Source: Burkholderiales bacterium
GTDB taxonomy: Bacteria; Pseudomonadota; Gammaproteobacteria; Burkholderiales; Burkholderiaceae_C
NCBI GenBank assembly: GCA_017307855.1
Contig: JAFKGD010000015.1
Location: forward strand, 33,496-97,495
DNA: 64,000 nt
Direction: 5' to 3'
The notes beneath the pieces were generated by a model. It saw only the letters and a program-made list of their open reading frames with translations. It searched no databases and was not told the DNA's origin. Of the stretch, positions 7,114-63,422 are shown one piece after another (positions within the stretch are counted from its first letter, which is position 1; each line of letters opens with the position of its first letter). A program made the position numbers and the translations under genes.

Positions 7114-7962
7114 TCAGCGCTTGCCTTCGCGCGCGCGCTCGCTCCAGTTGATGCGCGCGCCGATGACCTGCACCAGCATGTAGATGGAATAGGAGAGCAC
7201 GGCCGCGAGCAGCGCGACCGCATAGACCTGGTCGCCGCGGTACTGGGCCATGGCGCGGTTGATGACATAGCCCAGCCCTTCGGAGGAAATCATCCATTCG
7301 GCCGCGATCGCCACGATGATGCTGCCGCTGCCGGTGATCTCCTGCGCCGCCAGGATGTAGGGCACCGAGTACGGCAGCCGCACCTTGAGGAACACCTTCC
7401 ACGGGCTCACGTCGAGGATGCGCATGCGGTCGAGCACCACGGTGTCCACCGATCGCAGGCCACGCATGGTGTTCACCAGCACCGGGAAGAAGCCCGCGAT
7501 GGTGACGATGATGACCTTGGTCCACAGCCCGTCGCCCACGGCCAGCACCAGCACCGAGGCCAGTGCCACGTAGGGCACGTTGCGCAGCGTGATCGCGGCC
7601 GGCATCAGCAGGCGCTGGAAGATGCCCAGCGACGTGAACAGCACCGCCAGGCTGATGCCCACGATGTTGGCGAACAGGAAGCCCAGGGCCGCGGCCTTGA
7701 GCGTGACCACCAGATGCTGGGTGACGAAGGACGTCTCGTTGGTGAGCACGGCCAGCACCTGCGTGGGGCGCGGGATCACGAACTCGGGCAGACCCGAGAA
7801 CGCGATGGCCAGATACCACAGGCCCAGGATCGAGGCGACGGGAAAGGCGATGCGCGAGACGAGGCGCAGCGCGCGCGCCAGCAGGGCACGCGCGGCTTCA
7901 GCGGGCGCGGAGGCCGTCGTGGCGGGATGGGCGGGGGTGGCCGGAGCGGTCGTTGTGTTCAT
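7114..7962 (-). CDS. ABC transporter permease (TauC/SsuC-like)
   Basis: Start re-set to MNTTTAPATPA. Multiple TM segments and an EAA-loop-like region (LDVSPWKVFLKVRLPYSVPYILAAQ). Confidence 0.85.
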   Translation of the reverse strand: MNTTTAPATPAHPATTASAPAEAARALLARALRLVSRIAFPVASILGLWYLAIAFSGLPEFVIPRPTQVLAVLTNETSFVTQHLVVTLKAAALGFLFANIVGISLAVLFTSLGIFQRLLMPAAITLRNVPYVALASVLVLAVGDGLWTKVIIVTIAGFFPVLVNTMRGLRSVDTVVLDRMRILDVSPWKVFLKVRLPYSVPYILAAQEITGSGSIIVAIAAEWMISSEGLGYVINRAMAQYRGDQVYAVALLAAVLSYSIYMLVQVIGARINWSERAREGKR

Positions 7963-38600: not shown

Positions 38601-38614
38601 GTTCCGTTCTTCAT
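32642..38614 (-). CDS. Bacterial alpha-2-macroglobulin family protein (YfhM/ECAM-like, thioester-containing)
   Basis: Start re-set to MKNGTRNTTTGWIARAIVGTALAAGWPAWA, with RBS AAGGAGAAG (1990 aa). The thioester motif C-L-E-Q (YPYTCLEQQTS) is encoded at 34121-34132. It has the classical pairing with pbpC. Confidence 0.9.
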   Translation of the reverse strand: MKNGTRNTTTGWIARAIVGTALAAGWPAWALQVTGVTPQGEVAQVRQVTVRFDSAAVAFGDPAAAAPATVSCSDAQASRGSGRWLDDRRWVWDFTADLPPGVRCTVATRSGFAAPQGGALASGQWRFQTGGPAVRQLRPGSWQPLDEEQFFVMQLTGPATTASVAANVWCEMEGLGERIPVRMIDGAQRSDLLKSLNLDKAAATDPLRIATFACNRRLTPSAKVQVVYGRGVATPSGVVNAVERRFDFTVREPFALEFSCERENAEAACLPIRPLRLSFNAPVERRLAAAIVLKGPQGSVKPKFDNEGEDDALVNGVRFEAPFAESARYTVELPSGFKDAAGRAARNAGNFPLPVATGVMPPLAKFAAAPFGIVERLAEPDGAMVLPVTLRKVEGTPAEPGKVSVLQLKDDADIIAWQRRLQRYDDFEVSRKQAARDVQGPLPAPLTKEEREWVQSRMLSLLAGKSGVRTLELPRGQGGDPRPFEVVGIPLSPGFHVVEIASPRLGAALLDAQHGAARTMYVRSSALVTNLGVHFKLGRENAMAWVTTLDAGKPVAGAQVRVSSCDGRELARGTTDARGLVELAGLSSQPPTCKEEGEYRDAYFVSARAPGRAPDGSAVQDIAFTWSDWHRGIEPWRFDLPTNSAPQPDVRMHTVFDRTLLRAGETVSMKHFIRTETRTGFALPRERPTQVEIRHTGSGQLYRQPLTWRTTGSGGLSAESEFAIPPAARLGVYRVTMQLGNDTQDSGEFRVEEFRLPVLQGRVAPAGKEALIAPTRVPAQVQVSYVAGGAATNLPVRVSALVRERRPDFRDFDSFSFAPPRNATPAAGTEGEEEEAAPQDERVVADKLPLTLDRNGTGQVTIEPLPAARAPRELVLEATYADPNGELQTLRSVSTVWPAGVVAGIRAESWVSSGRKLKFQALALDHAGKPREGVSLAVKAVARITTTSRKRMVGGFYSYDNKTELKDLGEVCSGKSDSRGLLLCETSLAQAGEVELVATAKDGAGRASEAASSVWVTRQGELWFGGQNNDRIDVLPEKKSYEPGETARFQVRMPFRFATALVAVEREGIVETHVMQLNGQDPTVSLKVGENWGPNTFVSVLALRGRLRDVPWYSFFTWGYKAPREWWTAFWVEGREYVAPTALVDLSKPAFRLGVAEIRVGTRAHKLDVAVKADRESYTVRGQAQVTISVKKPDGTPAGGAEVALAAVDQALLELMPNDSWNLLDAMLQRRSWGVETSTAQMEIIGRRHYGRKAVAPGGGGGRSPTRELLDTLLLWNPRVVLDAQGQAKVTVPLNDALTTFRIVAVADAGADLFGTGEARIRATQDLQIISGLPPLVREDDAFRAQFTLRNTTSRAMKVEVAPRATLLQLPARTVDIPAGEAREVTWDVKAPAQLAFTRAESLLWEIEARETSGSAGARDALKATQRIVPAVPLTVRQATLAQVDGSFSIDVASPAGALADNGVARGGLRLSLQPRLAEGLPGVRDWFARYPYTCLEQQTSRAIGLGDATLWRRVAGLMPGYLDSDGLPSYFPPREGEGARGSDTLAAYLLSATHEAAALDPAFALPDAVRSELERGLIAFVEGRVKRDFWSPRADLDVRKIAAIAALARTGAATPRLLQSVTLAPNQWPTHAVIDWHDILQRMPDAPRRAERLAEATQILRARLTYQGTRMSFSTERDDAWWWLMQGPDVNAARLLLSVMDDPAWKDDMGRLAAGFIARQQNGAWHTTTANLWGNLALRQFSAKFESQPVAGTTRAQLGSGTAAVDWARVERVKPADANTTQGAPHQGTAIGAPAAVGMLRNNAMTLPWPAPGAAQPLVVTHQGSGRPWLTLQALAAVPLTSPVAAGYRITRTVTPVEQATAGRYTRGDVLRITLEVDAQADMSWVVVSDPVPGGATVLGSGLGRDSQIATRGEQRDRGVAWPAFEERGFEAFRTYYEYLPKGKAKIEYTVRLNNVGDFALPPTRAEALYAPDVYGEIPNARIKVEPAP

Positions 38615-38758
38615 GACTTCTCCTTGCCCCCTGATCGTCGCCGGGCTTGATGACGCGTCGCCAGGCCCGTTGGAAACAATTTGTAGGACAAACGCAGCGG
38701 GACGATCAGGCGGCCGGCCCACATTCTCGCCACCGCGAATCACCGTACTGTCGCCAGC

Positions 38759-40051
38759 ATGAACCGCCGTTGGGAATTCGATGCGCTGCGCGGCCTGATG
38801 CTGGTGCTGATGACCTTCACGCACCTGCCCTCGCGCCTGAGTTCGCCGCTGGGCCAGCCGTTCGGCTTCGTCTCGGCGGCCGAAGGCTTCGTGCTGCTCT
38901 CGGCGGTGATGGCGGGGATGATCTACGGCCGCATGGCGCGGCGCGACGGCATCGAGGCGATGGAGCGCGCGTTCTGGAAGCGCGCCCTCAAGGTCTACCT
39001 GTGCCAGCTGGCGCTGATGCTGTTCCTGTTCACGGTGGTGGCCATGCTGGGCCTGGCGCGCGGCGAGCCGGCGGTGACCAACCTGATGTCGTTCTACCTG
39101 CAGCATCCGGTGCTGGCGCTGCCGGCGGCTGCGCTGCTGGTCTACCAGCCGGCGCTGATGGACATCCTGCCCATGTATGTGCTGTTCATGCTGGCCAGTC
39201 CGTGGGTCATGGCCTGGGGCCTGCGGCGTGGCTGGGGTCCGGTGATGGCGCTGAGCGTGGGCCTTTGGGTGGTGGCGCAGTTCGGTGTCGAGATGCGGCT
39301 GCACGGCCTGCTCGAACACCATTTGGCTTTCCCGGTGCCCTGGCGGGACACCGGCGCATTTTCATTGATGGCGTGGCAGTTCCTGTGGGTGATGGGGCTG
39401 TGGCTGGGCGCGGGCCGCCAGCCCCATTCGCCACCGCACCTGCGCTTTCCGTCCTGGGCGGTCACCCTGGCGGTGATGCTGGCGCTGGTCGGGCTGGCCT
39501 GGCGCCACACCATGGGGCAGGCGCCGTTCGGCGCCAACGTCGCGCTCAACATGGTGTTCGACAAATGGCAGCTGGCACCCATGCGCGTGCTCAACCTGTT
39601 CGCGCTGATCGTGGTGGTTCTGCGTTTCGGACCCTGGCTGGCCGCGCGCATGCCGCGCCTGCGGTGGCTGGAAACGCTGGGCATGGCATCGCTGCCGGTG
39701 TTCTGCGCCCACCTGGTCGTGGTGCTGCTGGTGCTCTCGATCTGGGGTGGCAGTCCGACGGCGCGGCCGGTGTGGGGCGACGTGCTGCTGGTGGCGGGCT
39801 GCTTCGGCATCCTGTATGCCGTGGCGCGCATCTCGGTGGCGCTGGACCGCCTGCCGCCGCGCGGCAAGGGCGGCCGGCCGGCGGCCCCGTTCAGCGCGCG
39901 GCCGTCGCCGTCACCGCATGCGCCGGTGCCTGTGCAGGCGCCGACGGCAGCGGCCGCGTCGATGCCGACGTCGTCAGCACGGCCGGCACCGCTGTCGCCG
40001 CCGTCACCGCCGCTGGGGCCGGTGCCCCCGGTGCCACCGGCACCCCTGTGA
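38759..40051 (+). CDS. OpgC-like / acyltransferase-3-like membrane protein with a Pro/Ala-rich tail
   Basis: 430 aa. MNRRWEFDALRGLMLVLMTFTHLP and about 10 TM segments. The last ~70 aa are low-complexity Pro/Ala/Ser. Confidence 0.65.
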   Translation: MNRRWEFDALRGLMLVLMTFTHLPSRLSSPLGQPFGFVSAAEGFVLLSAVMAGMIYGRMARRDGIEAMERAFWKRALKVYLCQLALMLFLFTVVAMLGLARGEPAVTNLMSFYLQHPVLALPAAALLVYQPALMDILPMYVLFMLASPWVMAWGLRRGWGPVMALSVGLWVVAQFGVEMRLHGLLEHHLAFPVPWRDTGAFSLMAWQFLWVMGLWLGAGRQPHSPPHLRFPSWAVTLAVMLALVGLAWRHTMGQAPFGANVALNMVFDKWQLAPMRVLNLFALIVVVLRFGPWLAARMPRLRWLETLGMASLPVFCAHLVVVLLVLSIWGGSPTARPVWGDVLLVAGCFGILYAVARISVALDRLPPRGKGGRPAAPFSARPSPSPHAPVPVQAPTAAAASMPTSSARPAPLSPPSPPLGPVPPVPPAPL

Positions 40052-48863: not shown

Positions 48864-49916
48864 ATGAGAGCAGAAGAATCGCAAATTTTATCGGCGTTCC
48901 ACGAGCCGGCGGCTTCGTCGGAGCCGGCGGCGCAGCTGCTGGTGTTCGACGCCTGCCAGCTGGGTGTCGTGCTGCGTGCGGTGCTTTTCGTCGAGGCGGT
49001 TGTGGCTGTGGCGTCCATGTATGGTGCGGCCGGCCCTTCGCACTGGTTGTTGCGCGCCTCGCTGATCACTGCCGTGGCGCTTCCGGCCACGCTGGCCTGG
49101 CTGATCGTCGCCTGCGCCGGCAAGCGCGCGCTCGCGCGTCTGCCGCGGTGGGCCCAGTACCTGGCAGGCGCGAGCCTGGGCGCGCTGGCCGGACTCTACG
49201 GTTGCGGCATGCTGGCGCTGGCGAGCTACGCCGAGGCCGTTCCCTGGCTGGCAGGCGCCAGCACCGGCGCGCTGATGGCTGCCCTGCTGGTCGGCGGCCT
49301 GGAACTGCGGGCGCGAGGCCGCACACCGGCCGACACCACCGCGCGCCTGGCCGAGTTGCAGTCGCGCATCCGGCCGCACTTTCTCTTCAATACCCTCAAC
49401 AGCGCCATCGCGCTGGTACGCGCCGAGCCGGCCAAGGCGGAAGCCCTGCTGGAAGATCTCAGTGATCTGTTCCGCGCCGCGCTGGTGGAGCAGGGAGACT
49501 CGGTGACATTGGACGAAGAAATCCGCATGGCCGAGCGTTATCTGGCGATCGAGCAGGTGCGGTTCGGTGACCGGTTGCGCATCGGCTGGCATCTCGATCC
49601 TGACGCCGACACCGCCCGGCTGCCGCCGCTTCTGCTCCAGCCGCTGGTGGAGAATGCCGTACGCCATGGCGTGGAGCCCAGCGACAGCGGCGCCGACATC
49701 GAAATCAGCACCGAACGGCGCCGCAACACGGTCGTCATCAAGGTTGCCAATACCGTTCCGGCCGGACCGGGCACGCCAGGACACGGCGTGGCGCTGAACA
49801 ATGTGCGCGACCGGCTGCATTTGCTGCACGACGTGCGCGTGCAGTTCAGCGCAGCCTTGGATGGTGGCGTGTTCCGCGTCCGCATCGAATTACCCGTTGG
49901 GGGAGAAGTCCGATGA
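48864..49916 (+). CDS. LytS/AlgZ(FimS)-type sensor histidine kinase
   Basis: ATG at 48864 chosen because the GTG at 48822 would overlap the argH start. Membrane N-terminus, then the His_kinase motif [17 protein letters not shown] and [14 protein letters not shown]. Sits beside argH, as algZ does in Pseudomonas. Confidence 0.85.
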
Positions 49917-50656
49917 CCCTGAGAGTCCTGATCGTCGATGACGAGCCGCTTGCCCGGGCACGGCTGCGCACCCTGCTGGGGGACTGCGCTGATCCGACCG
50001 CCCAGGTCGTGGCCGAGGCCGGCAATGCCACCCAGGCCATGGACCTGATCACGCGGGAGCGTTTCGATCTCGCGCTGATAGACATCCACATGCCGGGGGC
50101 CGATGGCCTCAAGCTGGCCCAGGCGATGCGTGGCGTGGACCGGCCGCCGATGGTGGTCTTCGTGACCGCCCACCCCGGCCATGCGGTGACGGCATTCGAA
50201 CTCGATGCGGTGGACTACCTCACCAAGCCGGTACGCATCGAGCGGTTGCGCCAGGCGCTGGTGAAGGCCGAGCGCTTCCTGCGCGAGCGCGAGGCGCCGG
50301 CCGATGAGCCCGTGCTCGTCATCCAGGACCGGGGGCGCACGGAGCGGGTGCCGTTCGCGGAGATCCTGTATTTCAAGGCCGAACTGAAGTACGTCACCGT
50401 GCGAACAGCCGCCCGCAGCTACATCCTGGACGGCTCGCTGGCCGAGCTCGAAGCCCGGCTGACCGGCCAGTTCCTTCGCATCCATCGAAACGCCCTGGTG
50501 GCGCGCCGCGCCGTGCGCTCACTGGAAAAGCACTACAGCACCGAGCCCGGCGAAGAAGGGGAAGGCTGGGCCATCCGCCTCACCGGCGTCCAGGAGGTGC
50601 TGGCCGTGTCGCGACGCCAACTGGCGGCTGTCCGCGAAGCAATCGCGTCAGGCTGA
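49913..50656 (+). CDS. LytTR-family response regulator (AlgR-like)
   Basis: 247 aa. Receiver (VLIVDDEPLAR...LALIDIHMPG...KP) plus a LytTR domain (ILYFKAELKYVTVRT...FLRIHRNALV). ATGA overlap with the kinase gene. Confidence 0.92.
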   Translation: MTLRVLIVDDEPLARARLRTLLGDCADPTAQVVAEAGNATQAMDLITRERFDLALIDIHMPGADGLKLAQAMRGVDRPPMVVFVTAHPGHAVTAFELDAVDYLTKPVRIERLRQALVKAERFLREREAPADEPVLVIQDRGRTERVPFAEILYFKAELKYVTVRTAARSYILDGSLAELEARLTGQFLRIHRNALVARRAVRSLEKHYSTEPGEEGEGWAIRLTGVQEVLAVSRRQLAAVREAIASG

Positions 50657-52173: not shown

Positions 52174-52916
52174 GGAGCCTATCGGTCATCCTGGCTGACG
52201 ACGATCGTGAGCAGTTGCGCTATCTCCAAGACCTGATCCACGTCCTTCGCCCCCACTGGACGGTCATCGCAGCGCTCGACGACATCACGTCGTTGCCGGC
52301 GTTGATCCAGAGTGAGCAGCCGTCCCTGTGCATTCTTGACGTCGGCTTCGAAGATACGAATGGAATAGACACGGTTCGAAATATTCCGAGCGCTCCTCCC
52401 ATCATCTACGTCACGGGCGACCCCTCCGCTGCTGTGAGGGCATTCGATACGCCGGCTATCGACTTCATCGTCAAACCCATACGCCGTGACCGTTTCGAGC
52501 AAGCGCTGGAGAGGGCCGAAAAACAGGTCGGGCTGCTCGCGGCCGAGAGGAGCCAGGCCGAGCGTTCCGATACCAGCCGCGTCGTGACGCCCACCATGGT
52601 CCGGATGATGCGCGGCGAAGATCTCATGATCGTCTCGCTGGACGAAGTCCGCTACTTCCAGGCGGATCGCAAGTACACGCGCGTGGTCCTCCAGTCCCAG
52701 GAAGGCATGCTGCGAATGAGCCTGTACGCCATCGAACCGTACATCAATGCGGACCACTTCTGGCGCATTCACAGAGGCTGCATCATCAACGCCCGGCGCG
52801 TGTCGCTGGCCAAGCGGGATGATCTGGGTCGTCTGTTCATCCGAGTCCAGGACCGGCCCGAGAGCCTGCCGGTCGCCAGGCCGTACGAGTACCTGTTCAA
52901 GGATGGCTTCTCCTGA
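52170..52916 (+). CDS. LytTR-family response regulator
   Basis: Start MRSLSVILADDDREQL (ATGA overlap with the upstream stop). Receiver D (LCILDV), T (YVTGD) and K (IVKP). LytTR domain VRYFQADRKYTRVVL...FWRIHRGCIIN. Confidence 0.9.
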   Translation: MRSLSVILADDDREQLRYLQDLIHVLRPHWTVIAALDDITSLPALIQSEQPSLCILDVGFEDTNGIDTVRNIPSAPPIIYVTGDPSAAVRAFDTPAIDFIVKPIRRDRFEQALERAEKQVGLLAAERSQAERSDTSRVVTPTMVRMMRGEDLMIVSLDEVRYFQADRKYTRVVLQSQEGMLRMSLYAIEPYINADHFWRIHRGCIINARRVSLAKRDDLGRLFIRVQDRPESLPVARPYEYLFKDGFS

Positions 52917-53061: not shown

Positions 53062-54891
53062 ATGTCCATCCCCTTCTTCGGCCGCGCCGCTGGCAAACAG
53101 CGTGTTTCAGGACTGTCGTCCTTGCCCCACGTCGATGTGGCGAGCCAGATCTCCCGGGAACGCATGGAGGTTGCCTGGCGCCAGGCCACCCGCACGATCC
53201 CCGGTCTGGCCGCTGCCGGAATGGGCGCTCTCTGGATGTGGGCGGCGACGGACAGGCTTGCATTGGGAAGTCTCTGGATCCTTGCCTGTCTGTTGCAGAC
53301 GGGGCTGATGTGGCTGGCCGCGCGACGCTACTTGAGGCTGGACGAAGCCGAGCGTCGACGGCATTACAGGGCGTTCTGGTGGAGCAACACCATCGGTGGC
53401 CTTCTACACGGCGCGCTGTGCACCACCTTCGCGTGGAGTGTGATTCCTGGGCTGGATCCGCCCGCACGCGCTTCCGCATCGGTGGCTTTGCTGGTCTTGG
53501 GGGGATGGCTGGCCAGCACCGGCTCCCTGCTGCGCGTCGGCTTCCTGTTCTCCGCGCTGTTGCCAACCTCGTCCTTGTGCCTCATCTGGTGGCCCGGCGC
53601 CCCTGCCGATGCGGCGGGTGCCGTGGTCGTCCTCATGTTCGGACTGGCACTGGTGTGGATGCACAGGGAGCAGGAACTTCTCCTTCAACGCTCCGTTCTC
53701 GCGCAGATGCGCAACGCAATGCTGATGCGCGAGGCATTGCAGCGCAGCCAGCTCATCGAGTCGATCAACAAGAAGAAGACCGAGATCATTGCTGCCGCCA
53801 GTCATGACTTGCGGCAGCCTGTCCATGCGCTCGGACTGCTCGTCCAGCGGCTGCATCCGAATCTGGGGGAGGCCGACCAACTGGTGCTTTTCCATCAGGT
53901 GCGATCCCGGGTGGCCGTGATCTCGGAGATGCTGGCTGGCCTGCTCGACCTGTCGAAGTTCGACAGCGGAAGCTACAAGGTGCGCCTCGAGACGGTCCGC
54001 TTGACCGACGTCGTGGAGGAAGTCGTCGGGCTCTTCGAGGACCGGGCACACCGGAAGAACCTCCGGTTGCGGCACGAGGTCGAGGATGTGGATATCCAGA
54101 CGGATGCGGCGTTGCTCAAGCAGATCATCCACAACCTCATCAGTAACGCGATCAAATACACGGCAAAGGGCGAGGTGGCGATCGTCGGCGGCTACGGAGG
54201 GGCGGGTTCGTTTCTCCTTCAGGTGCGCGATACCGGGATCGGTATTCCGCGTGGCAACCTCGACGAGATCTTCATGGAGTACTTCCGGCTGCCGGTCCAT
54301 CGCAATGGAAGCGAGGACGGTCTCGGCATCGGCCTGGCATTGGTCAAGCGCGCGTGCTCGTTGCTGAGCTACCGCGTCCACGTCAAGTCGATCGTGGGTG
54401 GTGGCAGCCGCTTCACGCTTGAAATTCCGGCGATGAGGGTGGCGCCGCATCGTCGCCAGGTGGATCTCCTGCCGGCCGACACGGTGCCCGGGGATTCTGC
54501 AGGTAACCAGGAGCATTGCATCCTGCTGCTGGAGAACGATGAGGTCGCGCACGACGCCATGGTTCGCCTGGTCTCGGACTGGGGCTATCGCGTCATCGCC
54601 AACACGGACGGCGAGCGCATGCTGCAACGCCTGAGAACTGATCCTGCATTGCGGCCCGATCTCATCGTCTCGGACATGCATCTGGGCGGGCCCAAGGATG
54701 GCGTGCAGTACATCGAGGCCATCCGGGAGATCATGGGAGCTCCCAGGCTGCCTGGTCTGGTGGTGACCGGCGATCTGGGGCGTGAGCTTCAGGAGCGTGC
54801 GGCCAAGAAGGGCATCCGCATCCTGTACAAGCCACTCCAGCCGCGGATCCTGAAGGCCGCCATCAGAGGCGTCCTGCGCTCTCCCGGCTAG
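53062..54891 (+). CDS. Hybrid sensor histidine kinase (membrane N-terminus, HisKA, HATPase, C-terminal receiver)
   Basis: 609 aa with about 5-6 TM helices. H-box AASHDLRQPVHAL, N-box LISNAIKYT, G-boxes VRDTGIGIP and GLGIGLALV. Receiver ILLLENDEVAHD...LIVSDMHLGG...YKP. Confidence 0.88.
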   Translation: MSIPFFGRAAGKQRVSGLSSLPHVDVASQISRERMEVAWRQATRTIPGLAAAGMGALWMWAATDRLALGSLWILACLLQTGLMWLAARRYLRLDEAERRRHYRAFWWSNTIGGLLHGALCTTFAWSVIPGLDPPARASASVALLVLGGWLASTGSLLRVGFLFSALLPTSSLCLIWWPGAPADAAGAVVVLMFGLALVWMHREQELLLQRSVLAQMRNAMLMREALQRSQLIESINKKKTEIIAAASHDLRQPVHALGLLVQRLHPNLGEADQLVLFHQVRSRVAVISEMLAGLLDLSKFDSGSYKVRLETVRLTDVVEEVVGLFEDRAHRKNLRLRHEVEDVDIQTDAALLKQIIHNLISNAIKYTAKGEVAIVGGYGGAGSFLLQVRDTGIGIPRGNLDEIFMEYFRLPVHRNGSEDGLGIGLALVKRACSLLSYRVHVKSIVGGGSRFTLEIPAMRVAPHRRQVDLLPADTVPGDSAGNQEHCILLLENDEVAHDAMVRLVSDWGYRVIANTDGERMLQRLRTDPALRPDLIVSDMHLGGPKDGVQYIEAIREIMGAPRLPGLVVTGDLGRELQERAAKKGIRILYKPLQPRILKAAIRGVLRSPG

Positions 54892-55607: not shown

Positions 55608-55985
55608 GATGGTTCGGAAATTTGTAGCGTGAAGGCTGGGGGAGCGAGCGCTTCGGGGGCGGGAGCAGGCCTGCGCTGCGCAGGATCGGACCATGGCATC
55701 GGCGGCGTCAGGCGGCGTGCTTGGTCCCATGCCACATGCCGGGCGGGATCGGGGATTCCACTGTTCCGCGTTACGTCCCACGTTCCACCGGGTGTTACGT
55801 AGCAAGTACTCGTCCATCGAGGGCTTGAAGCTGTAAAGCGGAGGGCGCAACGCACAGTTCGCCGGTTTTTTGACGAATTGGGAGCGTTTTGCGGGATTTT
55901 GGGACCCAGTGGTTTGGTTGCACGTTCTGGCCCGGGAATTGCCCTTCTGAACGCATATCCACCCGCAAATCCAAGGAGCGAAGAC

Positions 55986-57140
55986 ATGAAGGCAGTGACT
56001 CACCTGTTCAAAGGTTCGTGTGTCGTGATCGCGCTGGCACTGACCGGCTGCGCTTCGGACGGCAGTTTCAGCTCAACCGCCGGTGCAGGAGGCGGCGGAG
56101 GCACGACTGGCGGTGGGGACAGCGGCTCCGGCAGTCCCAGGACCTTCACCAGTGTCGAGCGCGGCACCAACGCCGTGGCCACGATCGGCCAGGAGGCCGG
56201 CGGCCTGCTCGGCACGGCGGGCAATCTGGTCGAGCAGGTGGGCGGCAGCGTGGGTCAGGCCAGCCTTCCTTTGGTGGGCGCAGGCACTGCGCCCGCGCTG
56301 GGCGGCGTGCTCGGCAACACCGGCCAGGCCGTGGGGGCTGTCGGCGCTGGCGTGTCGTCGGGTCTCGGCCAGCTTGGCAACGTCGCAGATCCGATCGGCA
56401 ACACGGCCGGCGGCCTGCCGCCCGCCGTCCAGTCGCTGGGCCAGGCGGTGAGCAGCGCAGGCGAGGCCGTGCGCTCGGTCGATGGCGGTCAATTGGGCGT
56501 ACTGGCGCCCGTGACCAACACGGCTGGCGAGGTGGTCGATCGCACGGGCGGCCTCGTGACGCAAGTCGGCGGTCAGCTGGGTACGGCGCTCGATAGCGAG
56601 GGCGTGCGGCAGGTGACGGGCGGCCTGAGTGAAGCGGTGACGCCCGTGGTCGGCGGCGTGATGACGGGAACCCAGAGTGCCGGCGACATGCTGGGTGTGG
56701 GCCAGCCCGTCAACAACCTGCTGACACAGGTGGGCGGCGGCGTGCAGTCGCTTGGCGAAGCCATCTCCGGAGACGGCAACCGTCCGGTGGTGAACGAGGT
56801 GGGTCAGGTCGTCTCCGCCGCGGGCACGACGGTCGTCGCATTGGGCGGTGTGGTGCATGCCGACGGTAGCCAGGGCGCTGGTCTGGGCAGCCTCGGTGGC
56901 GTCCTCGGCTCGCTGACGGGCGGGCTCGCGGGCGGCTCGGGCAGTGGCTCCGGCGGCGGCAGCGTGGGTGTGGGCGGCGGTCTCGTGGCTGGCGTCGCCA
57001 GCACGGCAGGCAGCCTGGGCGTCGGACTGGGCGGTGGCGTAGGCGCAGGTGCCACGGGCTCCTCGGGTGGCACGTCGTCCACCGGCGGCCTGCTGGCCCC
57101 CGTGGGCAACCTCCTCGGCGGCCTGAGCGGACGGCGTTGA
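55986..57140 (+). CDS. Glycine-rich repetitive lipoprotein (no TPS domain)
   Basis: Start re-set to MKAVTHLFKGSCVVIALALTGCASDG, with RBS AAGGAG at 55972-55977. Lipobox L-T-G-C. The mature part is Gly/Val/Leu/Gln-rich with recurring xQVGGxxG units and poly-Gly/Ser tracts. 384 aa. Confidence 0.75.
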   Translation: MKAVTHLFKGSCVVIALALTGCASDGSFSSTAGAGGGGGTTGGGDSGSGSPRTFTSVERGTNAVATIGQEAGGLLGTAGNLVEQVGGSVGQASLPLVGAGTAPALGGVLGNTGQAVGAVGAGVSSGLGQLGNVADPIGNTAGGLPPAVQSLGQAVSSAGEAVRSVDGGQLGVLAPVTNTAGEVVDRTGGLVTQVGGQLGTALDSEGVRQVTGGLSEAVTPVVGGVMTGTQSAGDMLGVGQPVNNLLTQVGGGVQSLGEAISGDGNRPVVNEVGQVVSAAGTTVVALGGVVHADGSQGAGLGSLGGVLGSLTGGLAGGSGSGSGGGSVGVGGGLVAGVASTAGSLGVGLGGGVGAGATGSSGGTSSTGGLLAPVGNLLGGLSGRR

Positions 57141-57169
57141 GCCGGGCTGACGTTCATCGCCAGCACCGG

Positions 57170-58867
57170 ATGGCTTCCAGTACCAGGACCGCGCTCGCCT
57201 GGCTCTGCGCCCTGACTCTCGCGAGTCAGGGCGCGGTGTCGTGGGCGCAATCGCCCAGCGCGGGCAATCCGCTCGACCAGTTGCCGCAACCGCTGGACCG
57301 CACTCCGGCCGGCGGCGGCGTACAGGTCGAAGTCACGCCGGCGCCCGCGCCGGCCGCCACGGCCGACGCTCTGGCAAGGCAGTTCGTGCCTCGCCGCTTC
57401 GACATCGAGGGCGTGAAATCGGTGCCGTTCTCCGACATCGCGGCGCTGTTTTCTCCCCACGTAGGCAAACCGGTGACCGTCGCGCGTCTGGTCGAGCTCG
57501 CGCGCGAGGCGACGGCCCTCTACCAGCGCGACGGCTGGGGCCTGTCGTTCGTCTACGTGCCGTCCCAGGCCTTCGCCGACGGCGTGGTGCGCGTGGTGGC
57601 GGTGGAAGGCCACGTGGCCGATGTCCGGGTGGAAGGCGATGCCGGACGCTCGGCCGCGCGTCTGCAGGACATCGCGGCCCGCATCCGGACAGAGAAGCCG
57701 TTGCGGCGCGAAACCTTCGAGCGGTACTCGGCGCTTCTGGGCCGTCTTCCGGGGCTGACGGTGGAGGCCAGTGTGCCGCTGCCGGCGTCCACCGATGGCG
57801 CCTCCGTCATGACGCTCAAAGTGACGCGCAAGATGTTCGATGCCAACGTGGCTTCCGACCTGCGGCGGCCGCATCCGCGTGCCGTGGCGACGGCGACGCT
57901 CAACGACACCCTCACCCCCGGCGGACAGCTCTCGGTGTCGGCGCTGGTGGTCGGGCGTGAAGACGAGAGGCTGCAGGCCGTGCAGTACCGGCAGGCGATC
58001 GGTTCCGAGGGCCTTACCCTCAAGGCCGCGTTCTCTGCCTACCGGGGGGATCCCGACGGCACGCTGGGCCTTGCGTCCCCGTTCGACCGCCGCACCACCA
58101 ACCTGCGGCGCGAGCTCTCGGCGTTGTATCCGCTGCGCCTGGGACCCACGCACAGCCTCCTGCTGTCGGGTGGCCTGTACAGCGTCGACAACGTGGAGAC
58201 CACGGCCGATCCGGCCACCGGCAATTTCGTCGCCGACGATACACGCGTGCGAGCTGCCTTCGCGCAGCTGGCCTGGGAAGACAACCAGCCCCGGCGCGCG
58301 CGCTCGGCCAGTCTCCTGGTCGCGCGCGGACTCGACGGCAACGGTGCGGGCTCGTTCGTTCGCAGCAATGTGCCGGGCGCGGCCGGGCCGGGCACGGCAC
58401 GCGTGGACTTCACGCGCGCGTTGATCGAGCTGAAGGAATCGCGCCGCATCGGCGACGCCTGGGGCATCGTCGCCTCGGCCGCAGCGCAGGTCACACCGGA
58501 TACCCTGCCCACGACCGAGCGCCTGTCGTTCGGAGGGGCACGCTTCGGCCGTGCCTATGCGCCGGGCGAAACCTCGGGCGACCAGGGGTGGGGCCTGGGC
58601 TTCGAGGTCAACCGCCTCTTCACGCGGCCAGCAGGCGGCTGGGTGCGGCAAGTGCAACCCTACGTGTTGCTGGAGGCTGCACGCGCGTATGGCGAACTGG
58701 GAACGCCCGTGCCGTCGAAGTTGGGCTCGGCGTCACTGGGTCTGCGGCTCGCCGATCTCAAGCACTACATGCTGGATTTCTCGGTGTCGCGCGCCGTGGG
58801 CGAGCGGCCGCTGGAGAATCCCGACCGCGAACCGCGCCTCGTCGTGCAGTTCAGCTTCCGCCTGTGA
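57170..58867 (+). CDS. ShlB/FhaC/HecB-family (TpsB, type Vb) outer-membrane transporter
   Basis: Signal peptide MASSTRTALAWLCALTLASQGAVSWAQ. POTRA-like FDIEGVKSVPFSDIAALFSPHVGKPVTVARLVELAREATALYQRDGWGLSFVYVPSQAFADGVVRVVAVEG. C-terminal beta-barrel ending in F-S-F-R-L. An alternative TTG start at 57137 overlaps the lipoprotein stop. Confidence 0.85.
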   Translation: MASSTRTALAWLCALTLASQGAVSWAQSPSAGNPLDQLPQPLDRTPAGGGVQVEVTPAPAPAATADALARQFVPRRFDIEGVKSVPFSDIAALFSPHVGKPVTVARLVELAREATALYQRDGWGLSFVYVPSQAFADGVVRVVAVEGHVADVRVEGDAGRSAARLQDIAARIRTEKPLRRETFERYSALLGRLPGLTVEASVPLPASTDGASVMTLKVTRKMFDANVASDLRRPHPRAVATATLNDTLTPGGQLSVSALVVGREDERLQAVQYRQAIGSEGLTLKAAFSAYRGDPDGTLGLASPFDRRTTNLRRELSALYPLRLGPTHSLLLSGGLYSVDNVETTADPATGNFVADDTRVRAAFAQLAWEDNQPRRARSASLLVARGLDGNGAGSFVRSNVPGAAGPGTARVDFTRALIELKESRRIGDAWGIVASAAAQVTPDTLPTTERLSFGGARFGRAYAPGETSGDQGWGLGFEVNRLFTRPAGGWVRQVQPYVLLEAARAYGELGTPVPSKLGSASLGLRLADLKHYMLDFSVSRAVGERPLENPDREPRLVVQFSFRL

Positions 58868-59774
58868 CAGCGCGGCCACGGGGCTTGAGCAGGCCCGTGG
58901 CCAGCCCCGTACCCAGGAGGATCACGGCGCCGCATGCCACCATCCACGGAGTGATCGTCTCACCCAGGAAGATCGCGCCGAAGACCACCGCGAACACTGG
59001 CACGACGAAGGTGACGGCCAGCGCGCGCGTCGGCCCGGCCTGCTCGAGCAGGCGGAAGAACAGAAGGTAGGCCACGCCGGTGGACAGCGTGCCTGCTGCC
59101 AGCACGGCCATCCACGCCTGCATGCTGGGCCACTGGCTCGGCATGAACCACAGGGCCGGCAGCAGCAGCCCCACGGTGGCACCGATCTGGCTGCCTGCGG
59201 CCGTGAGCACGGGTGGCAAACCCTTGGCGTGCCGGCGTGTGTAGCTCGCCGCGATGCCGTAGCACAGCGTGGCCAGCAGGCACGCCAGCACGGCCCAGCC
59301 CGTGGCCAGGCCCGAGGCGTCGGGGCGGAAGCTGGCCTTGTTCCAGGCCAGCATCACCACGCCCGCGAAGCCCACGGCCAGTCCGAGCGTGCGCCAGCGG
59401 TCGGGGCGATCGCCCAGCCACACCCACGCCACCAGCGCGCCGAACAGCGGCGTGGTCGCGTTGAGGATGGCCGACAGGCCCGACGTGATCGACAGCAGCG
59501 CGAAGCTGTAGCACGCGAACGGAATGGCTGAATTCACCATGCCCACGACGAGCAGCGGGCGCCAGTGCTGCCGCATTCCGCTGCCCAGGCCGCGCAGCAG
59601 CAACAGCGGCAGCAGCATCAGCGCGGCCACGGCCGTGCGCAACGCCGCCGTGGGCAGCGCGCCGAATTCCTGCGTGGCCACGCGCATGAACAGAAACGAA
59701 CAACCCCACGCGGCCGAAAGCAGCAGGAAATCGAGCACCCAACGGTGGCCCGGCGCCGAGCGCGGTGCAGTCAC
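58851..59774 (-). CDS. EamA/DMT-family transporter
   Basis: Ten-TM pattern with two EamA repeats (LLLSAAWGCSFLFMRVA...). The GTG at 59774 (GTGA overlap with the ogt stop) is chosen because upstream track sequence is ogt shadow. Start is uncertain. Confidence 0.75.
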   Translation of the reverse strand: MTAPRSAPGHRWVLDFLLLSAAWGCSFLFMRVATQEFGALPTAALRTAVAALMLLPLLLLRGLGSGMRQHWRPLLVVGMVNSAIPFACYSFALLSITSGLSAILNATTPLFGALVAWVWLGDRPDRWRTLGLAVGFAGVVMLAWNKASFRPDASGLATGWAVLACLLATLCYGIAASYTRRHAKGLPPVLTAAGSQIGATVGLLLPALWFMPSQWPSMQAWMAVLAAGTLSTGVAYLLFFRLLEQAGPTRALAVTFVVPVFAVVFGAIFLGETITPWMVACGAVILLGTGLATGLLKPRGRAVTGGS

Positions 59775-60358
59775 GCGCGCTGCCCCGCCGTCGCCAGGCC
59801 AATGGCGCGCTCGCCGAAGTCCAGCCCTGGTGAATCCAGTGGCGATGGCACCCGCGACGCCGGCCACGCGCCTTCGAGCGTGAGCAGCGCTTGCTTGCGG
59901 TGCAGCCCGCCGGCATAGCCGGTGAGGCTGCCGCCGTGCCCCATCACGCGGTGGCAGGGCACGATGATCGATACCGGGTTGCGGCCCACCGCCGCGCCCA
60001 CGGCGCGCACGGCCGAGGCGCGGCCGATCTGCCGGCCCAGCGCGCCGTAGCTCGTGGTCGTGCCCGGCGCGATGCCCAGAAGTGCCTGCCACACCGCCTG
60101 CTGGAACGCCGTGCCGCCCGAGAGATCCAGCGGCAGGTCGAACATCAGGCGGCGGCCCGCAAAGTACTCCTCGAGCTGGCGCCCGGCGGCGTCGAGCACG
60201 GCATCGGCGGTGTCAGCGGATGCCCAGGCCGAACCGTCGGGCTGATGGCGCTGGCCGTCGAACCACACGCCGGCCAGGCCTGTGGGGCTGGCCGCCAGGA
60301 TCATCGGGCCGAGCGGGCTGTCATGGCGGCGTCGCCGCAAGGTATCGGGGAACTTCAT
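59771..60358 (-). CDS. ogt: Methylated-DNA--protein-cysteine methyltransferase
   Basis: Start re-set to MKFPDTLRRRR (ATGA overlap with the upstream gene). Active-site IIVPCHRV motif. Confidence 0.9.
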   Translation of the reverse strand: MKFPDTLRRRRHDSPLGPMILAASPTGLAGVWFDGQRHQPDGSAWASADTADAVLDAAGRQLEEYFAGRRLMFDLPLDLSGGTAFQQAVWQALLGIAPGTTTSYGALGRQIGRASAVRAVGAAVGRNPVSIIVPCHRVMGHGGSLTGYAGGLHRKQALLTLEGAWPASRVPSPLDSPGLDFGERAIGLATAGQRA

Positions 60359-61851
60359 GATGTCGTTGTCCTTGTCGTCTCGGGTGGCCGGTCCCAGGCG
60401 CGCAGCACGGCGTAGCTGCGCCATGGCTTCCAGGCCTGCGAGGCGGCCTCGGCCGTGCGCGCCGTGGGCGTGTCCAGCGCCTTCTGCAAGGCGATGTCTC
60501 CGGCCGGAAAGGCATCGGGCCAGCGCAGCGCACGCATGGCGATGTACTGCGCCGTCCAGTCGCCGATGCCCGGCAGCTCGCACAGGCGCCGCACGGTGTC
60601 GGCATACGGCACGCCCGGATGCAGCGGCAGCGTGCCATCGGCGGTGGCCCGCGCGATGGCTCGAAGGGCGGCCTGCCGCTGGCGCACGATGCCGAGCTGG
60701 CCCAATGCATCGGGGTCGGCGGCCGCCAGCACTTCGGGCGCGGGGAACAGGTGGGTCAACTCGGGCAAGGGTGTGGCGACGGGCTCGCCGAAGCGCTCGG
60801 CCAGCCGCCGTGCCAGCGTGCGTGCCGCCGCCACCGTGATCTGCTGGCCGAGGACGGCGCGCATGGCAAGCTCGTAGCCGTCCACCGTGCCGGGAACACG
60901 CAGGCCCTCGCTGCCCGGGAAGTGCGGCAGCAGCGTGGCATTGATGGCCTTCGGGTCCGCATCAAGGTCGAGCAGCGAGCGCACGCGCTGGATGACCTGC
61001 GGCAGCGCCGTACGCAGGCCGTCGGAGACGCGCAGCACCACCTGAGACCGTCCGGCGTCGAACTCGCACGCCAGCCATCCCGTGAGTGTGTGACCACCCG
61101 AGCGCAGCCGCAGCGTACGTGCCAGCCGCGGCGTGGCGGGCGATGCATCGACCCACTCGATACCCGGCAGGTGCCGCCGCTCCAGGAAGCCGAGCATGGC
61201 CGTCACGTCGTAGGGCGGCCGATAGCCCAGCCTGACTACCGAGCCTTCGATGCCGGCAGCCCTGCGTGCCGGCTCCTGGCGCCGCAGCTGCGTGGGATTG
61301 AGGCCGTAATGTTCGACGAATGCGGCGTTGAAGCGCCGCAGGCTGGCAAAGCCGCTGGCCAGCGCCACCTGGGCGATGGGCAGGTGGGTGTCGGCCAGCA
61401 ACTGCTTGGCGGTGAGCAGCCGCCGCGTCTGCAGGTACTGCAGGGGCGACACGCCGAACTGCGCCTCGAAGATGCGGCGCAGGTGGCGATCGCTCACGCC
61501 CAGACGCCCGGCCAGCTGGGCCGGCGAGGGCGGGGCGTCGCTCCAGGCCTCGGGATCGTCGAGCCAGCGCGCGGCCTGGTGGGCAAGGATGTACGACGCG
61601 TCCTGGATCGACCACACGATGGAGTGCGGCGCCAGCTCGGGACGGCAGCGCAGGCAGGGCCTGAAGCCCGCGGCCTCGGCCTGCGCCGCGTGGCCGAAAA
61701 AGCGGCAGTTCTCGCGGCGCGGTGTCCGCACGCGGCAGACGGGGCGGCAGTAGATGCCGGTGGAGGTGACCCCGGTGAAGAAGCAGCCGTCGAAACGCGC
61801 ATCGCGCGCCTGCAGCGCGAGATAGAAGGCGTCGTCGGCAGCGAGGGTCAT
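60355..61851 (-). CDS. Ada-N/AraC regulatory domain fused to an AlkA-type DNA-3-methyladenine glycosylase II
   Basis: Start re-set to MTLAADDAFYLALQARDARFDGCFFTGVTSTGIYCRPVCR. Cys-rich Ada Zn domain, AraC HTH (RHLRRIFEAQFGVSPLQYLQ) and HhH-GPD region (LPGIGDWTAQYIAMRAL). Confidence 0.85.
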   Translation of the reverse strand: MTLAADDAFYLALQARDARFDGCFFTGVTSTGIYCRPVCRVRTPRRENCRFFGHAAQAEAAGFRPCLRCRPELAPHSIVWSIQDASYILAHQAARWLDDPEAWSDAPPSPAQLAGRLGVSDRHLRRIFEAQFGVSPLQYLQTRRLLTAKQLLADTHLPIAQVALASGFASLRRFNAAFVEHYGLNPTQLRRQEPARRAAGIEGSVVRLGYRPPYDVTAMLGFLERRHLPGIEWVDASPATPRLARTLRLRSGGHTLTGWLACEFDAGRSQVVLRVSDGLRTALPQVIQRVRSLLDLDADPKAINATLLPHFPGSEGLRVPGTVDGYELAMRAVLGQQITVAAARTLARRLAERFGEPVATPLPELTHLFPAPEVLAAADPDALGQLGIVRQRQAALRAIARATADGTLPLHPGVPYADTVRRLCELPGIGDWTAQYIAMRALRWPDAFPAGDIALQKALDTPTARTAEAASQAWKPWRSYAVLRAWDRPPETTRTTTS

Positions 61852-62030
61852 GCGGTCGATGATACGGTGCCGATGGCGCCTGACTCGCCGTTTCCGGACA
61901 TGCCCATGTCGCGCCATGCCAGGGGATGGCGAGGCGGATGCGGCGTTGGCTGACACGGGTGCGCGCGGGTGCAAACCTACAATGCCGGCTCCGTTCCCGC
62001 GGCCCGGCCGCGTCACGAAAGCTCTCCGCC

Positions 62031-63422
62031 ATGCAGCTGTCTCCCTCCATCTTCAAGGCCTACGACATCCGCGGCATCGTGCCCTCCACGCTCACGCCCG
62101 AAGTCGCCGAAGCCCTCGGCCGTGCGTTCGGCACGCAGGCGAGGAACGCTGGCGAGAAGCGCGTGGCCGTGGGCCGCGACGGACGTCTGTCGGGCCCCGA
62201 GCTGTCGGCGGCGCTGGTGCGCGGCCTGGCGGCCACGGGAATCGAGGTGATCGACATCGGCGTCGTCACCACGCCGATGCTGTATTTCGCGGCCGCCACG
62301 CTGGCCAATTCGGGGATCCAGGTCACGGGCAGCCACAACCCCAGGGACTACAACGGCTTCAAGATGGTGCTGGCTGGCCGTGCGATCTATGGCGACGAGA
62401 TCCAGGCCCTGCGCCGAATCATGGAAGAGGAAAGCTGGCAGCTCGCCCCCGGCGGCAAGGTGTCCAACGTCAACGTGTTCGCGCCTTACCGCGACCGCAT
62501 CGTGGGCGACGTGAAGCTCGCGCGTCCGATGAAGATCGTGGTGGACAGCGGCAACGGTGTGGCCGGTGCCTCGGCCCCCGCGATCTTCCGGGCGCTGGGA
62601 TGCGAAGTGATCGAGCTGTTCAGCGAGGTGGACGGCAACTTCCCCAACCACCATCCCGATCCGAGCAAGCCCGAGAACCTCAAGGACCTGATCGCCGCGC
62701 TGCAGTCCTCCGATGCCGAGCTGGGCCTGGCCTTCGACGGCGACGGCGACCGTCTGGGCATCGTCACCAAGAGCGGCCAGAACATCTATCCCGACCGGCA
62801 GATGATGCTGTTCGCGCGCGACGTGCTCTCGCGCGTGCCGGGTGGCCGGATCGTGTTCGACGTGAAGTGCTCCCAGCGCCTGGCGCCCGCCATCCGCGAG
62901 GCGGGCGGCGAGGCGTTGATGTTCAAGACCGGCCACTCGCTCATCAAGGCGAAGATGAAGGAAGTCGATTCGCCGCTGGGCGGCGAAATGAGCGGCCACA
63001 TCTTCTTCAAGGAGCGCTGGTTCGGCTTCGACGACGGCACCTACGCGGGCTGCCGCCTGCTGGAGATCGCCAGTCGCACCGACGATCCGTCGGCGCTGCT
63101 CGAAGGACTGCCCACCAGCCACTCGACACCCGAGATCAATGTGGCCTGCGCCGAAGGCGAGCCGCACGCGCTGGTGGCCGAACTGGTGGCGCGCGCGCCG
63201 CAAGAGGACTTCGGCGCCGGCGCCCAGGTGTCCACCATCGATGGCGTGCGCATCGACTGGCCCGATGGCTTCGGGCTGATCCGCGCTTCCAACACCACGC
63301 CGGTGCTGGTGCTGCGCTTCGAGGGCCACGACGAGAAGGCGCTGCACCGCATCGAGGAGCGCATGCTGGTGCTGCTTCGCAGCGTCAAGCCCGACGCCGT
63401 GCTTGGCGCGTCGGCCCACTGA
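62031..63422 (+). CDS. Phosphomannomutase/phosphoglucomutase
   Basis: Start re-set to MQLSPSIFKAYDIRGIV. Active-site TGSHNPRDYNGFK, Mg loop FDGDGDRLG, and GEMSGHIFF. Confidence 0.92.
   Translation: MQLSPSIFKAYDIRGIVPSTLTPEVAEALGRAFGTQARNAGEKRVAVGRDGRLSGPELSAALVRGLAATGIEVIDIGVVTTPMLYFAAATLANSGIQVTGSHNPRDYNGFKMVLAGRAIYGDEIQALRRIMEEESWQLAPGGKVSNVNVFAPYRDRIVGDVKLARPMKIVVDSGNGVAGASAPAIFRALGCEVIELFSEVDGNFPNHHPDPSKPENLKDLIAALQSSDAELGLAFDGDGDRLGIVTKSGQNIYPDRQMMLFARDVLSRVPGGRIVFDVKCSQRLAPAIREAGGEALMFKTGHSLIKAKMKEVDSPLGGEMSGHIFFKERWFGFDDGTYAGCRLLEIASRTDDPSALLEGLPTSHSTPEINVACAEGEPHALVAELVARAPQEDFGAGAQVSTIDGVRIDWPDGFGLIRASNTTPVLVLRFEGHDEKALHRIEERMLVLLRSVKPDAVLGASAH

Follow-up and report, generated by a model that had tools for sequence, protein, structure and literature searches.

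Two same-strand open reading frames (ORFs) were found at positions 55986-58867 of the forward strand in a stretch of 64,000 nucleotides from a Burkholderiales bacterium (GenBank assembly GCA_017307855.1, contig JAFKGD010000015.1, positions 33,496 to 97,495). The whole stretch is referred to below as the window. The first ORF encodes a putative lipoprotein of the Collagen_mid family and the second encodes an outer-membrane transporter of the TpsB type. Their arrangement suggests that the two genes form an operon in which the transporter would serve the Collagen_mid lipoprotein instead of an exoprotein with a two-partner secretion (TPS) domain. A preliminary description, made from the sequence of the window, had pointed to the same two genes, and several of its claims are considered below together with the results that bear on them.

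A ribosome-binding site (RBS), AAGGAG, is located at 55973-55978 with a spacing of 7 nt to the ATG of the lipoprotein gene. The GC content of the divergent intergenic region in front of this gene (55608..55985) was 0.59 vs. ~0.72 in genes. The promoter is presumed to lie in this region, in which a consensus scan did not find a sigma-70-like site. The only terminator-like site identified by the terminator scan was located outside the operon. The start codon of tpsB is more likely ATG 57170 than TTG 57137. The former is also the start of a 100%-identical protein (P0017) from a metagenome-assembled genome in NCBI, which is annotated as 'ShlB/FhaC/HecB family hemolysin secretion/activation protein [Burkholderiales bacterium]'. 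With ATG 57170 as its start, tpsB is separated from the lipoprotein gene by an intergenic gap of 29 nt, while a start at TTG 57137 would overlap the stop codon of the lipoprotein gene. Thus, the preliminary description, in which this stop codon overlaps or abuts the tpsB start, is right only if TTG 57137 is used and wrong with the likelier ATG. For both genes, GC content by codon position supported the assigned frame rather than the long ORFs on the opposite strand, which are typical of DNA with 70% GC. Upstream of the two genes is a divergent ORF of 232 amino acid residues (aa) without Pfam match. Downstream is a convergent gene for an EamA transporter (Pfam), which overlaps the 3' end of tpsB by 17 nt. 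These two neighbors had been described correctly as a divergent hypothetical gene and a convergent eamA. Moreover, the two ORFs, the 384-aa length of the first product and its LALTG-C lipobox were all borne out.

The lipoprotein of the window matched the Pfam family PF15984, 'Collagen_mid' (bacterial collagen, middle region), with 155.3 bits (E 2.2e-45; cut-off 31.1). The match extended from aa 94 to 291 (nt 56265-56858), which corresponds to positions 1-197 of the 198 positions of the profile. Database homologues of this protein were 33-48% identical to it and all possessed PF15984, and no NCBIfam family matched it. By the lipobox rule [LVI][ASTVI][GAS]C, the protein is a predicted lipoprotein. 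The codon of its Cys22 is at 56049-56051, and the residues that follow are A-S-D. The mature protein contains 28.7% Gly, one Cys and no Lys, Trp or Tyr. It did not match the collagen GXY repeats of Pfam PF01391, and its Gly-rich tracts (GGGGGTTGGGDSGSGS, GGSGSGSGGGS) do not form GXY repeats. The preliminary description had the protein end in poly-Gly/Ser tracts, which proved too simple: its C-terminal end is GGLLAPVGNLLGGLSGRR (LLAPVxNLLGGLSGRR), a motif conserved throughout the family.

The structure of the lipoprotein predicted with AlphaFold2 (AF2) was all-alpha, with neither a beta-helix nor a barrel domain. The predicted local distance difference test (pLDDT) was <50 over most of aa 1-54, and aa 22-54 are 36% Gly and 21% Ser. 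The predicted helices were at aa 55-97, 101-130, 136-165, 171-200, 205-236, 239-261, and 267-289. In this core the pLDDT was mostly 65-82, dipping to 45-48 around aa 201-220. The hydrophobic residues recurred with a period of 3.5 residues and their autocorrelation peaked at 7, 11, and 14, which supports amphipathic helices. A Foldseek search of the PDB with the Collagen_mid core did not identify any significant fold match, the best one being to BAR-domain helices (E 0.3).

The transporter is an Omp85 protein of the TpsB translocator type. Its first POTRA domain matched Pfam POTRA_2 (PF08479) with 56.6 bits (E 2.4e-15; cut-off 24), and the Pfam scan gave no other match except one below threshold to the ShlB barrel model (PF03865), which nearly all homologues of the transporter carry. 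The only NCBIfam match, to BamA, was weak and spurious. The AF2 model, which was built on 20 homologues (pLDDT 81.9; predicted template modeling score 0.78), consisted of two POTRA domains and a 16-strand barrel. Both POTRA modules displayed the order beta-alpha-alpha-beta-beta with pLDDT values of ~90. The best Foldseek matches to this model were CdiB (6wim; E 9e-25, template modeling score 0.65-0.69) and FhaC (6e-24), and BamA and TamA ranked behind them. Similarly, a sequence profile of the clade matched CdiB (6.6e-14), the POTRA domains of TpsB4 (2mhj; 3e-10), and FhaC (1e-9) in the PDB. In loop 6, the clade consensus FGRGY aligned to VRGF of CdiB, and the Arg and Tyr residues are kept in the transporter of the window.

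In the structures of FhaC and CdiB, an N-terminal alpha-helix, H1, plugs the barrel. H1 was not detected in the transporter of the window, for which AF2 predicted no long helix in aa 1-62 and gave pLDDT values <50. Residues 27-72 include 8 Pro, and the longest stretch free of Pro is ~15 residues. FhaC aligned to the clade profile only from position 50 onward. Right behind the signal peptide, the clade possesses the motif GNPLDxLP, of which P34, L38, and P39 were invariant in the alignment of 20 transporter sequences.

More than 100 homologues of the transporter, with identities of 36-86%, were found in Comamonadaceae, Burkholderia/Paraburkholderia, Ralstonia, Lysobacter, and Dyella. The TpsBs linked to Collagen_mid formed a discrete clade, and the scores of homologues outside this clade fell sharply, from 352 to 121 bits. 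Gene neighborhoods were surveyed in 80 loci selected by TpsB similarity from at least 279 related stretches, plus 3 loci from contig look-ups. Collagen_mid ORFs were called with local hidden Markov models (HMMs), and loci with at least ~1 kb of DNA upstream of tpsB were considered evaluable. One or two same-strand Collagen_mid ORFs were immediately upstream of tpsB in all evaluable related loci (78/78): one in most loci of Comamonadaceae and Xanthomonadales and two in most loci of Burkholderia and Paraburkholderia. In the five loci without an upstream Collagen_mid ORF, tpsB was <400 nt from the contig end. Pfam also recognized Collagen_mid in 79/79 TpsB-proximal upstream genes, the one of the window included. 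For instance, in the diverse contexts of Burkholderia, Lysobacter, and Variovorax, an unannotated gene for 450-495 aa was directly upstream of tpsB, and all three were Collagen_mid according to Pfam. A look-up that began from a Collagen_mid protein also landed beside a TpsB. The pairing spans Comamonadaceae, Burkholderiaceae (Burkholderia/Paraburkholderia), Lysobacter, and Dyella, in two proteobacterial classes. In Alcaligenes the linked genes are in the reversed order, tpsB followed by Collagen_mid, and in several Comamonadaceae the lipoprotein gene and tpsB overlap by 4 nt. Clustering of the flanking ORFs did not reveal any other gene family common to all taxonomic groups, so the lipoprotein gene and tpsB represent a self-contained module. 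Adjacency in 78/78 evaluable loci means that the pairing is not due to chance. By gene association, it is strongly supported that the lipoprotein and transporter genes form a functional pair.

The two outgroup TpsBs that were sampled, with identities of 23-27%, adjoin large proteins with Pfam TPS domains (123 and 120 bits), and these matches also served as a positive control for TPS detection. Their gene order is a CHAT-domain/TPR protein, TpsB and a TPS-domain protein of >1300 aa (L086:5883-13795, L087:1087-9411). Given that the closest outgroup TpsBs are found with TPS-domain proteins, the Collagen_mid-linked clade departs distinctly from the classical form of two-partner secretion.

The TPS domain (PF05860) was not found by Pfam in the lipoprotein of the window, nor at E<=0.1 in the 79 TpsB-proximal partners. 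A profile search of the lipoprotein family against all PDB sequences did not identify any TPS-domain chain at E<=10. Moreover, no NPNL...NPNG motif was present in the six frames of the window or in 5415 ORFs of the related loci. A TPS domain hidden in the lipoprotein was thus ruled out by Pfam, the PDB profile, the motif scan and the all-alpha AF2 model. A TpsA inside the window was rejected as well: the only ORFs of >1000 aa with Pfam matches encode an alpha-2-macroglobulin and an over-extended FUSC-like product. Near the related tpsBs, no TpsA was found within ~10 kb on each side (less at contig ends) in 83 loci. Because its partner lacks a TPS domain, the system fails the canonical definition of two-partner secretion and should not be classed as such, and it may still work like two-partner secretion.

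These results agree with much of what the preliminary description had claimed about the system. The assignment of the transporter to the ShlB/FhaC type was confirmed by the POTRA_2 match, the AF2 fold and the CdiB/FhaC matches. The claims that the lipoprotein lacks NPN motifs and beta-helix repeats and that no TpsA-like ORF of >1000 aa lies alongside are also correct. HMM searches and a survey of genomes for co-occurrence of the two genes had been proposed. The searches gave no TPS match for the lipoprotein and POTRA_2 with a sub-threshold ShlB match for the transporter, and the survey found both genes linked in every evaluable locus. A difference from classical two-partner secretion had been foreseen, and it is seen in the outgroup TpsBs, which adjoin genuine TPS-domain proteins, while this clade adjoins Collagen_mid. 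A difference from Slam had been foreseen too and is consistent with the Pfam scan, in which the transporter matched only POTRA_2 and ShlB. The suggestion of a new cargo class held in part. The TpsB pairing is conserved and its partner has no TPS domain, but the lipoprotein family itself is known and partly studied (Collagen_mid/Bcc-CLPs). The positions of the features are listed in Table 1.

Table 1. Features of the Collagen_mid-tpsB module, with positions in the window
Feature	Residues	Positions	Strand	Basis
Collagen_mid lipoprotein gene, putative cargo	384 aa plus stop	55986..57140	+	Pfam PF15984; homologues; GC at third codon positions 0.81
TpsB-type (ShlB/FhaC/HecB-like) outer-membrane transporter gene	565 aa	57170..58867	+	Pfam, AF2, Foldseek, PDB profile
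Divergent intergenic region 5' of the lipoprotein gene, presumed promoter region		55608..55985	+	GC drop; RBS read from sequence
Lipoprotein signal peptide, lipobox LALTG/C	...VVIALALTG, then C22	55986..56051	+	Sequence
Gly/Ser/Thr-rich linker behind the lipid anchor, predicted disordered	aa 23-54	56052..56147	+	AF2, composition
Helical core, seven predicted long amphipathic helices	aa 55-291	56148..56858	+	AF2, periodicity
Disordered Gly-rich C-terminal tail, ending GGLLAPVGNLLGGLSGRR	aa 292-384	56859..57137	+	AF2, alignment, tail profile
Predicted Sec signal peptide of the transporter, ...AVSWA/QSP	aa 1-26	57170..57247	+	Translation; n/h/c-region rules
Clade motif GNPLDQLP in Pro-rich segment	aa 32-39	57263..57286	+	20-sequence alignment
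Two periplasmic POTRA domains	aa ~73-147 and 148-222	57386..57835	+	Pfam, AF2, PDB profile
16-strand Omp85-type beta-barrel	aa ~223-565	57836..58864	+	AF2 strands
Loop-6 motif FGRAY	aa 459-463	58544..58558	+	Aligns with CdiB ...GGESSVRGF...

The features shared by the lipoprotein family were computed on 121 Collagen_mid ORFs of the related loci. The polypeptide length of the partners in these loci was ~300-630 aa. A lipobox was present in 114 of the 121 ORFs, most of the others being cut by a contig end, and none of the family members in these loci had Asp at position +2. The pooled composition of the mature proteins was extreme, with 2.7% for D+E+K+R, 0.1% for F+W+Y and a single mature Cys. 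Of the 121 relatives, 26 had at least four GXY triplets in a row. In Burkholderia, two divergent tandem lipoprotein genes accompany each tpsB, and the lengths of their repeats were highly variable. Comparison of 119 distinct tails revealed a conserved C-terminus, LAPVT-x-L(L/G)GGL...(K/R). The last residue was Lys or Arg in 87% of these tails, the last 40 aa were without acidic residue in 111 of them, and a terminal aromatic residue was never found, unlike in the beta-signals of Omp85 proteins. By these sequence features, the tail is a candidate recognition or secretion signal. A sortase-type tripartite signal, like those of PEP-CTERM or GlyGly-CTERM, was considered but set aside, given the shortness of the hydrophobic stretch, further copies of the motif upstream and the lack of an NCBIfam match. 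In addition, the partner that is conserved with the tail is a TpsB, whereas an exosortase or rhombosortase would go with such a signal.

Previous work had catalogued 75 Collagen_mid lipoproteins as 'Bcc-CLPs' and tabulated bcal1524-bcal1523-bcal1522-bcal1520 as a possible operon beside the flp pilus locus (PMC10224339). In that work bcal1522, which adjoins bcal1523 and bcal1524, was described as encoding an outer-membrane 'heme utilization-related' protein, and neither its TpsB nature nor a link to two-partner secretion was recognized (PMC10224339). BCAL1524 was found in outer-membrane vesicles (OMVs), and a deletion mutant autoaggregated less and was less virulent in Galleria (PMC10303873). 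In addition, contact with host membrane vesicles induced bcal1520, bcal1523, and bcal1524 along with flp pilus genes (PMC7970998). The lipoprotein of the window is ~30-40% identical to Collagen_mid members of Burkholderia. Within an incomplete coverage of the literature, we found no paper in which lipoproteins or collagen-like proteins are connected with TpsB transporters as cargo. Thus, the Collagen_mid family and its neighborhood were known already, and the notion of a TpsB serving that family appears to be new.

The module has tad/flp pilus genes beside it in 44 of the 49 loci from Burkholderia, two loci from Polaromonas, and Alcaligenes. The window does not have this adjacency, nor do most loci of Comamonadaceae and Xanthomonadales. 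The adjoining genes encode a prepilin peptidase A24, TadE, RcpC/CpaB, a secretin and Flp (L020:12030-16822, L027, L084:1-341). Adjacency to Tad/Flp suggests a shared program of adhesion or aggregation. Directly behind tpsB, 41-46 Burkholderia loci also possess a gene for a DUF2147 protein (e.g., L001:3826-4287), which is conserved in that genus only. It is probably the counterpart of bcal1520, which is listed as a putative lipoprotein (PMC10224339), and its product may be a lineage-specific third component. In Alcaligenes, a gene for a MarR-family regulator is behind each of the two Collagen_mid genes (L084:4833-5300 and 7369-7800), and this repeated unit was not seen in other lineages.

From gene association and predicted structures, we propose that a specialized TpsB clade exports or surface-displays a co-encoded, Lol-delivered Collagen_mid lipoprotein that has no TPS domain, a proposal that we regard as about equally likely to be right or wrong. 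The 384-aa precursor would pass through Sec and be lipidated at Cys22. Since there is no Asp at position +2, Lol would then bring the lipoprotein to the inner leaflet of the outer membrane. With hardly any charged, aromatic or Cys residues and with disordered Gly-rich segments at both ends, the protein could stay competent for translocation. The POTRA domains of TpsB might engage an extended segment. As the N-terminus is anchored by lipid, this segment would most likely be the C-terminal LAPVT-LLGGL-K/R tail. The unfolded chain would be threaded through the 16-strand barrel, and the helical Collagen_mid core with its heptad pattern would fold outside the cell. The exported protein would remain tethered by its N-terminal lipid via the Gly/Ser linker. 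Extrapolating from BCAL1524 of B. cenocepacia, the lipoprotein at the surface may be a self-associating or adhesive factor. In a broader form, to which we give somewhat less than an even chance, a discrete TpsB clade of Burkholderiales and Xanthomonadales, present in several hundred species at the least, would have switched its cargo to Lol-delivered, N-terminally lipidated, alpha-helical Collagen_mid proteins without TPS domain. These would be recognized by their conserved, uncharged, Gly-rich, Lys/Arg-ended C-terminal tails, and the pathway would be distinct from two-partner secretion, from Slam/type XI secretion and from BamA-RcsF.

Several points weigh against this proposal. The TpsB systems whose mechanism is known need an N-terminal TPS beta-helix domain for recognition, and to our knowledge no TpsB moves a lipidated substrate. 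The tie between lipoprotein and TpsB consists of gene association plus predicted structures of single chains. The ShlB barrel model (PF03865) reached 19.1 bits on the transporter of the window, below the gathering score of 22.7, and the loop-6 motif of this transporter is RAY, with Ala in place of the Gly of the usual RGY. The helical core of the lipoprotein was predicted with moderate confidence (overall pLDDT 59.5). The locus survey was sampled by TpsB similarity only, and the search for a TpsA in this genome covered 64 kb only. Furthermore, B. cenocepacia J2315 has three more Collagen_mid paralogues without an adjacent TpsB (PMC10224339, Table 1), so a cis-encoded TpsB is not needed by every Collagen_mid member. 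Detection of BCAL1524 in OMVs cannot separate surface exposure from anchoring at the periplasmic face.

The strict co-occurrence of the two genes would fit a stable complex equally well as a pair of cargo and transporter. The lipoprotein might be anchored in the outer membrane facing the periplasm as an accessory of the transporter, i.e., a partner, regulator or plug comparable to BamB-E for BamA, and the barrel would then export an unlinked substrate or assemble an outer-membrane component. Omp85 proteins commonly have lipoprotein partners, such as BamBCDE of BamA (PMC4104836), and in a clade without a detectable H1 plug helix an external partner could act as the gate. We nevertheless consider this explanation unlikely. 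The POTRA_2 type is specific for TpsB, and the nearest structures are those of CdiB and FhaC, not those of BamA and TamA. The divergent tandem lipoproteins of Burkholderia with their variable repeats are typical of surface antigens or cargo, and scarcity of charged, aromatic and Cys residues combined with long disordered tails would be unusual for a structural subunit. The phenotype of the BCAL1524 deletion, which concerns autoaggregation, also argues against it.

Alternatively, the two proteins could be co-regulated components of adhesion or aggregation, often together with Tad/Flp pili, that have no direct tie in transport, the lipoprotein being localized by Lol/BAM or another route. The tad/flp adjacency in Burkholderia (44/49 loci), two Polaromonas loci and Alcaligenes, the co-induction with flp genes in B. 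cenocepacia and the three J2315 paralogues without adjacent TpsB are all consistent with such a program. Linkage to Tad is patchy, however, whereas that between tpsB and the lipoprotein gene is universal, and the 4-nt overlaps of the two genes suggest translational coupling. Because co-regulation would also leave a dedicated TpsB without substrate unexplained, we regard this explanation as quite improbable. Finally, unlinked TpsA and TpsB genes occur in some bacteria and the visible part of this genome is 64 kb, so that the transporter could be a classical TpsB whose TPS-domain TpsA is encoded elsewhere in the genome, with the lipoprotein gene as an incidental neighbor. An incidental neighbor would not persist in 78/78 loci of two classes while other neighbors change. 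Moreover, neither the window nor the flanks of the 83 loci (~10 kb per side, less at contig ends) yielded a TPS motif or domain, and in the outgroup the TpsA is still encoded next to its TpsB, all of which makes an unlinked TpsA very improbable.

Elsewhere in the window, a gene for a bacterial alpha-2-macroglobulin (A2M) of 2226 aa is at 32642-39322(-), ~17 kb upstream of the module, and in Variovorax sp. RT4R15 a homologous A2M gene is immediately upstream of the Collagen_mid-tpsB module (L014:2320-8328). The shared vicinity of A2M could be coincidence or residual synteny. Closer to the module, the 247-aa ORF at 49913-50656(+) has, as judged by eye, a response-regulator receiver-like N-terminus and a LytTR-like C-terminus, and a second receiver/LytTR-like ORF, also recognized by eye, ends at 52916. 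They are followed by a gene for a hybrid histidine kinase with HisKA, HATPase_c and receiver domains at 53062-54891(+). Neither these ORFs nor the kinase gene are conserved beside the module elsewhere. Beyond eamA, ORFs at 59771-62016(-) and 61926-63422(+) resemble by eye a methylated-DNA-protein-cysteine methyltransferase, an Ada/AlkA-type regulator-glycosylase and a phosphomannomutase/phosphoglucomutase, and are apparently housekeeping genes without relation to the module.

The TPS domain is regarded as a universal entry ticket to type Vb secretion, and the surface exposure of proteobacterial lipoproteins is only partly understood. If the proposed export by TpsB is true, type V secretion would gain a class of cargo, small lipidated helical proteins, and a mode of recognition. 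It would also provide an export route for the collagen-like lipoproteins of Burkholderia that are pursued as adhesins or vaccine antigens (BCAL1524 and possibly Bucl3) and would explain how adhesins of the Bcc-CLP/Bucl3 type arrive at the surface. A tractable model is at hand in B. cenocepacia K56-2 with bcal1522-1524, as published work has provided a ΔBCAL1524 mutant together with assays. The extreme composition of the cargo and its conserved C-terminal tail are concrete handles for dissecting the signal.

Similar to the type Vb systems FhaC/FhaB, ShlB/ShlA, and CdiB/CdiA, the system described here has a transporter with a Sec signal, two POTRAs of the POTRA_2 type, a predicted 16-strand Omp85 barrel and Arg-(Gly/Ala)-Tyr in loop 6. 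Also similar to type Vb systems, the transporter is encoded beside its presumed substrate, and one transporter may adjoin two substrate genes. Different from these systems, the partner has no TPS domain, NPNL/NPNG motifs or beta-helix but is small, predicted to be alpha-helical and, by its lipobox, lipidated. The transporter also differs in its Pro-rich N-terminus, which has GNPLDxLP instead of a detectable H1.

The closest likeness of the lipoprotein is to the Bcc-CLPs BCAL1523 and BCAL1524, with which it shares PF15984, a lipobox, a low-complexity linker, an ordered middle region and a Gly-rich tail. They also share the type of neighbor, as bcal1522 for an outer-membrane protein adjoins bcal1523/bcal1524. 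Different from the Bcc-CLPs, the protein of the window does not have GXY collagen-like repeats and its module is not beside tad/flp. Bucl3 of B. pseudomallei has been described as a lipoprotein that combines GTS repeats with a helical 'Talin-1' region, and on these grounds it probably belongs to the Collagen_mid family as well.

Slam of Neisseria (type XI) is a 14-strand DUF560 barrel with an N-terminal TPR domain. The analogy to Slam is conceptual: in both cases a dedicated outer-membrane barrel is encoded beside a lipoprotein that is thought to be displayed at the surface. The transporter of this study differs in that it matched only POTRA_2/ShlB in Pfam and CdiB/FhaC in structure. In BamA-dependent exposure of RcsF and in the lipidated autotransporters NalP and SphB1, a lipoprotein passes through a barrel related to Omp85 or type V with its N-terminal lipid kept. 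The BamA-RcsF structure 6t1w was also among the fold matches of the transporter model. Different from RcsF, NalP, and SphB1, which use BamA or a C-terminal barrel of their own, the Collagen_mid lipoprotein would use a separate and dedicated transporter of the TpsB type.

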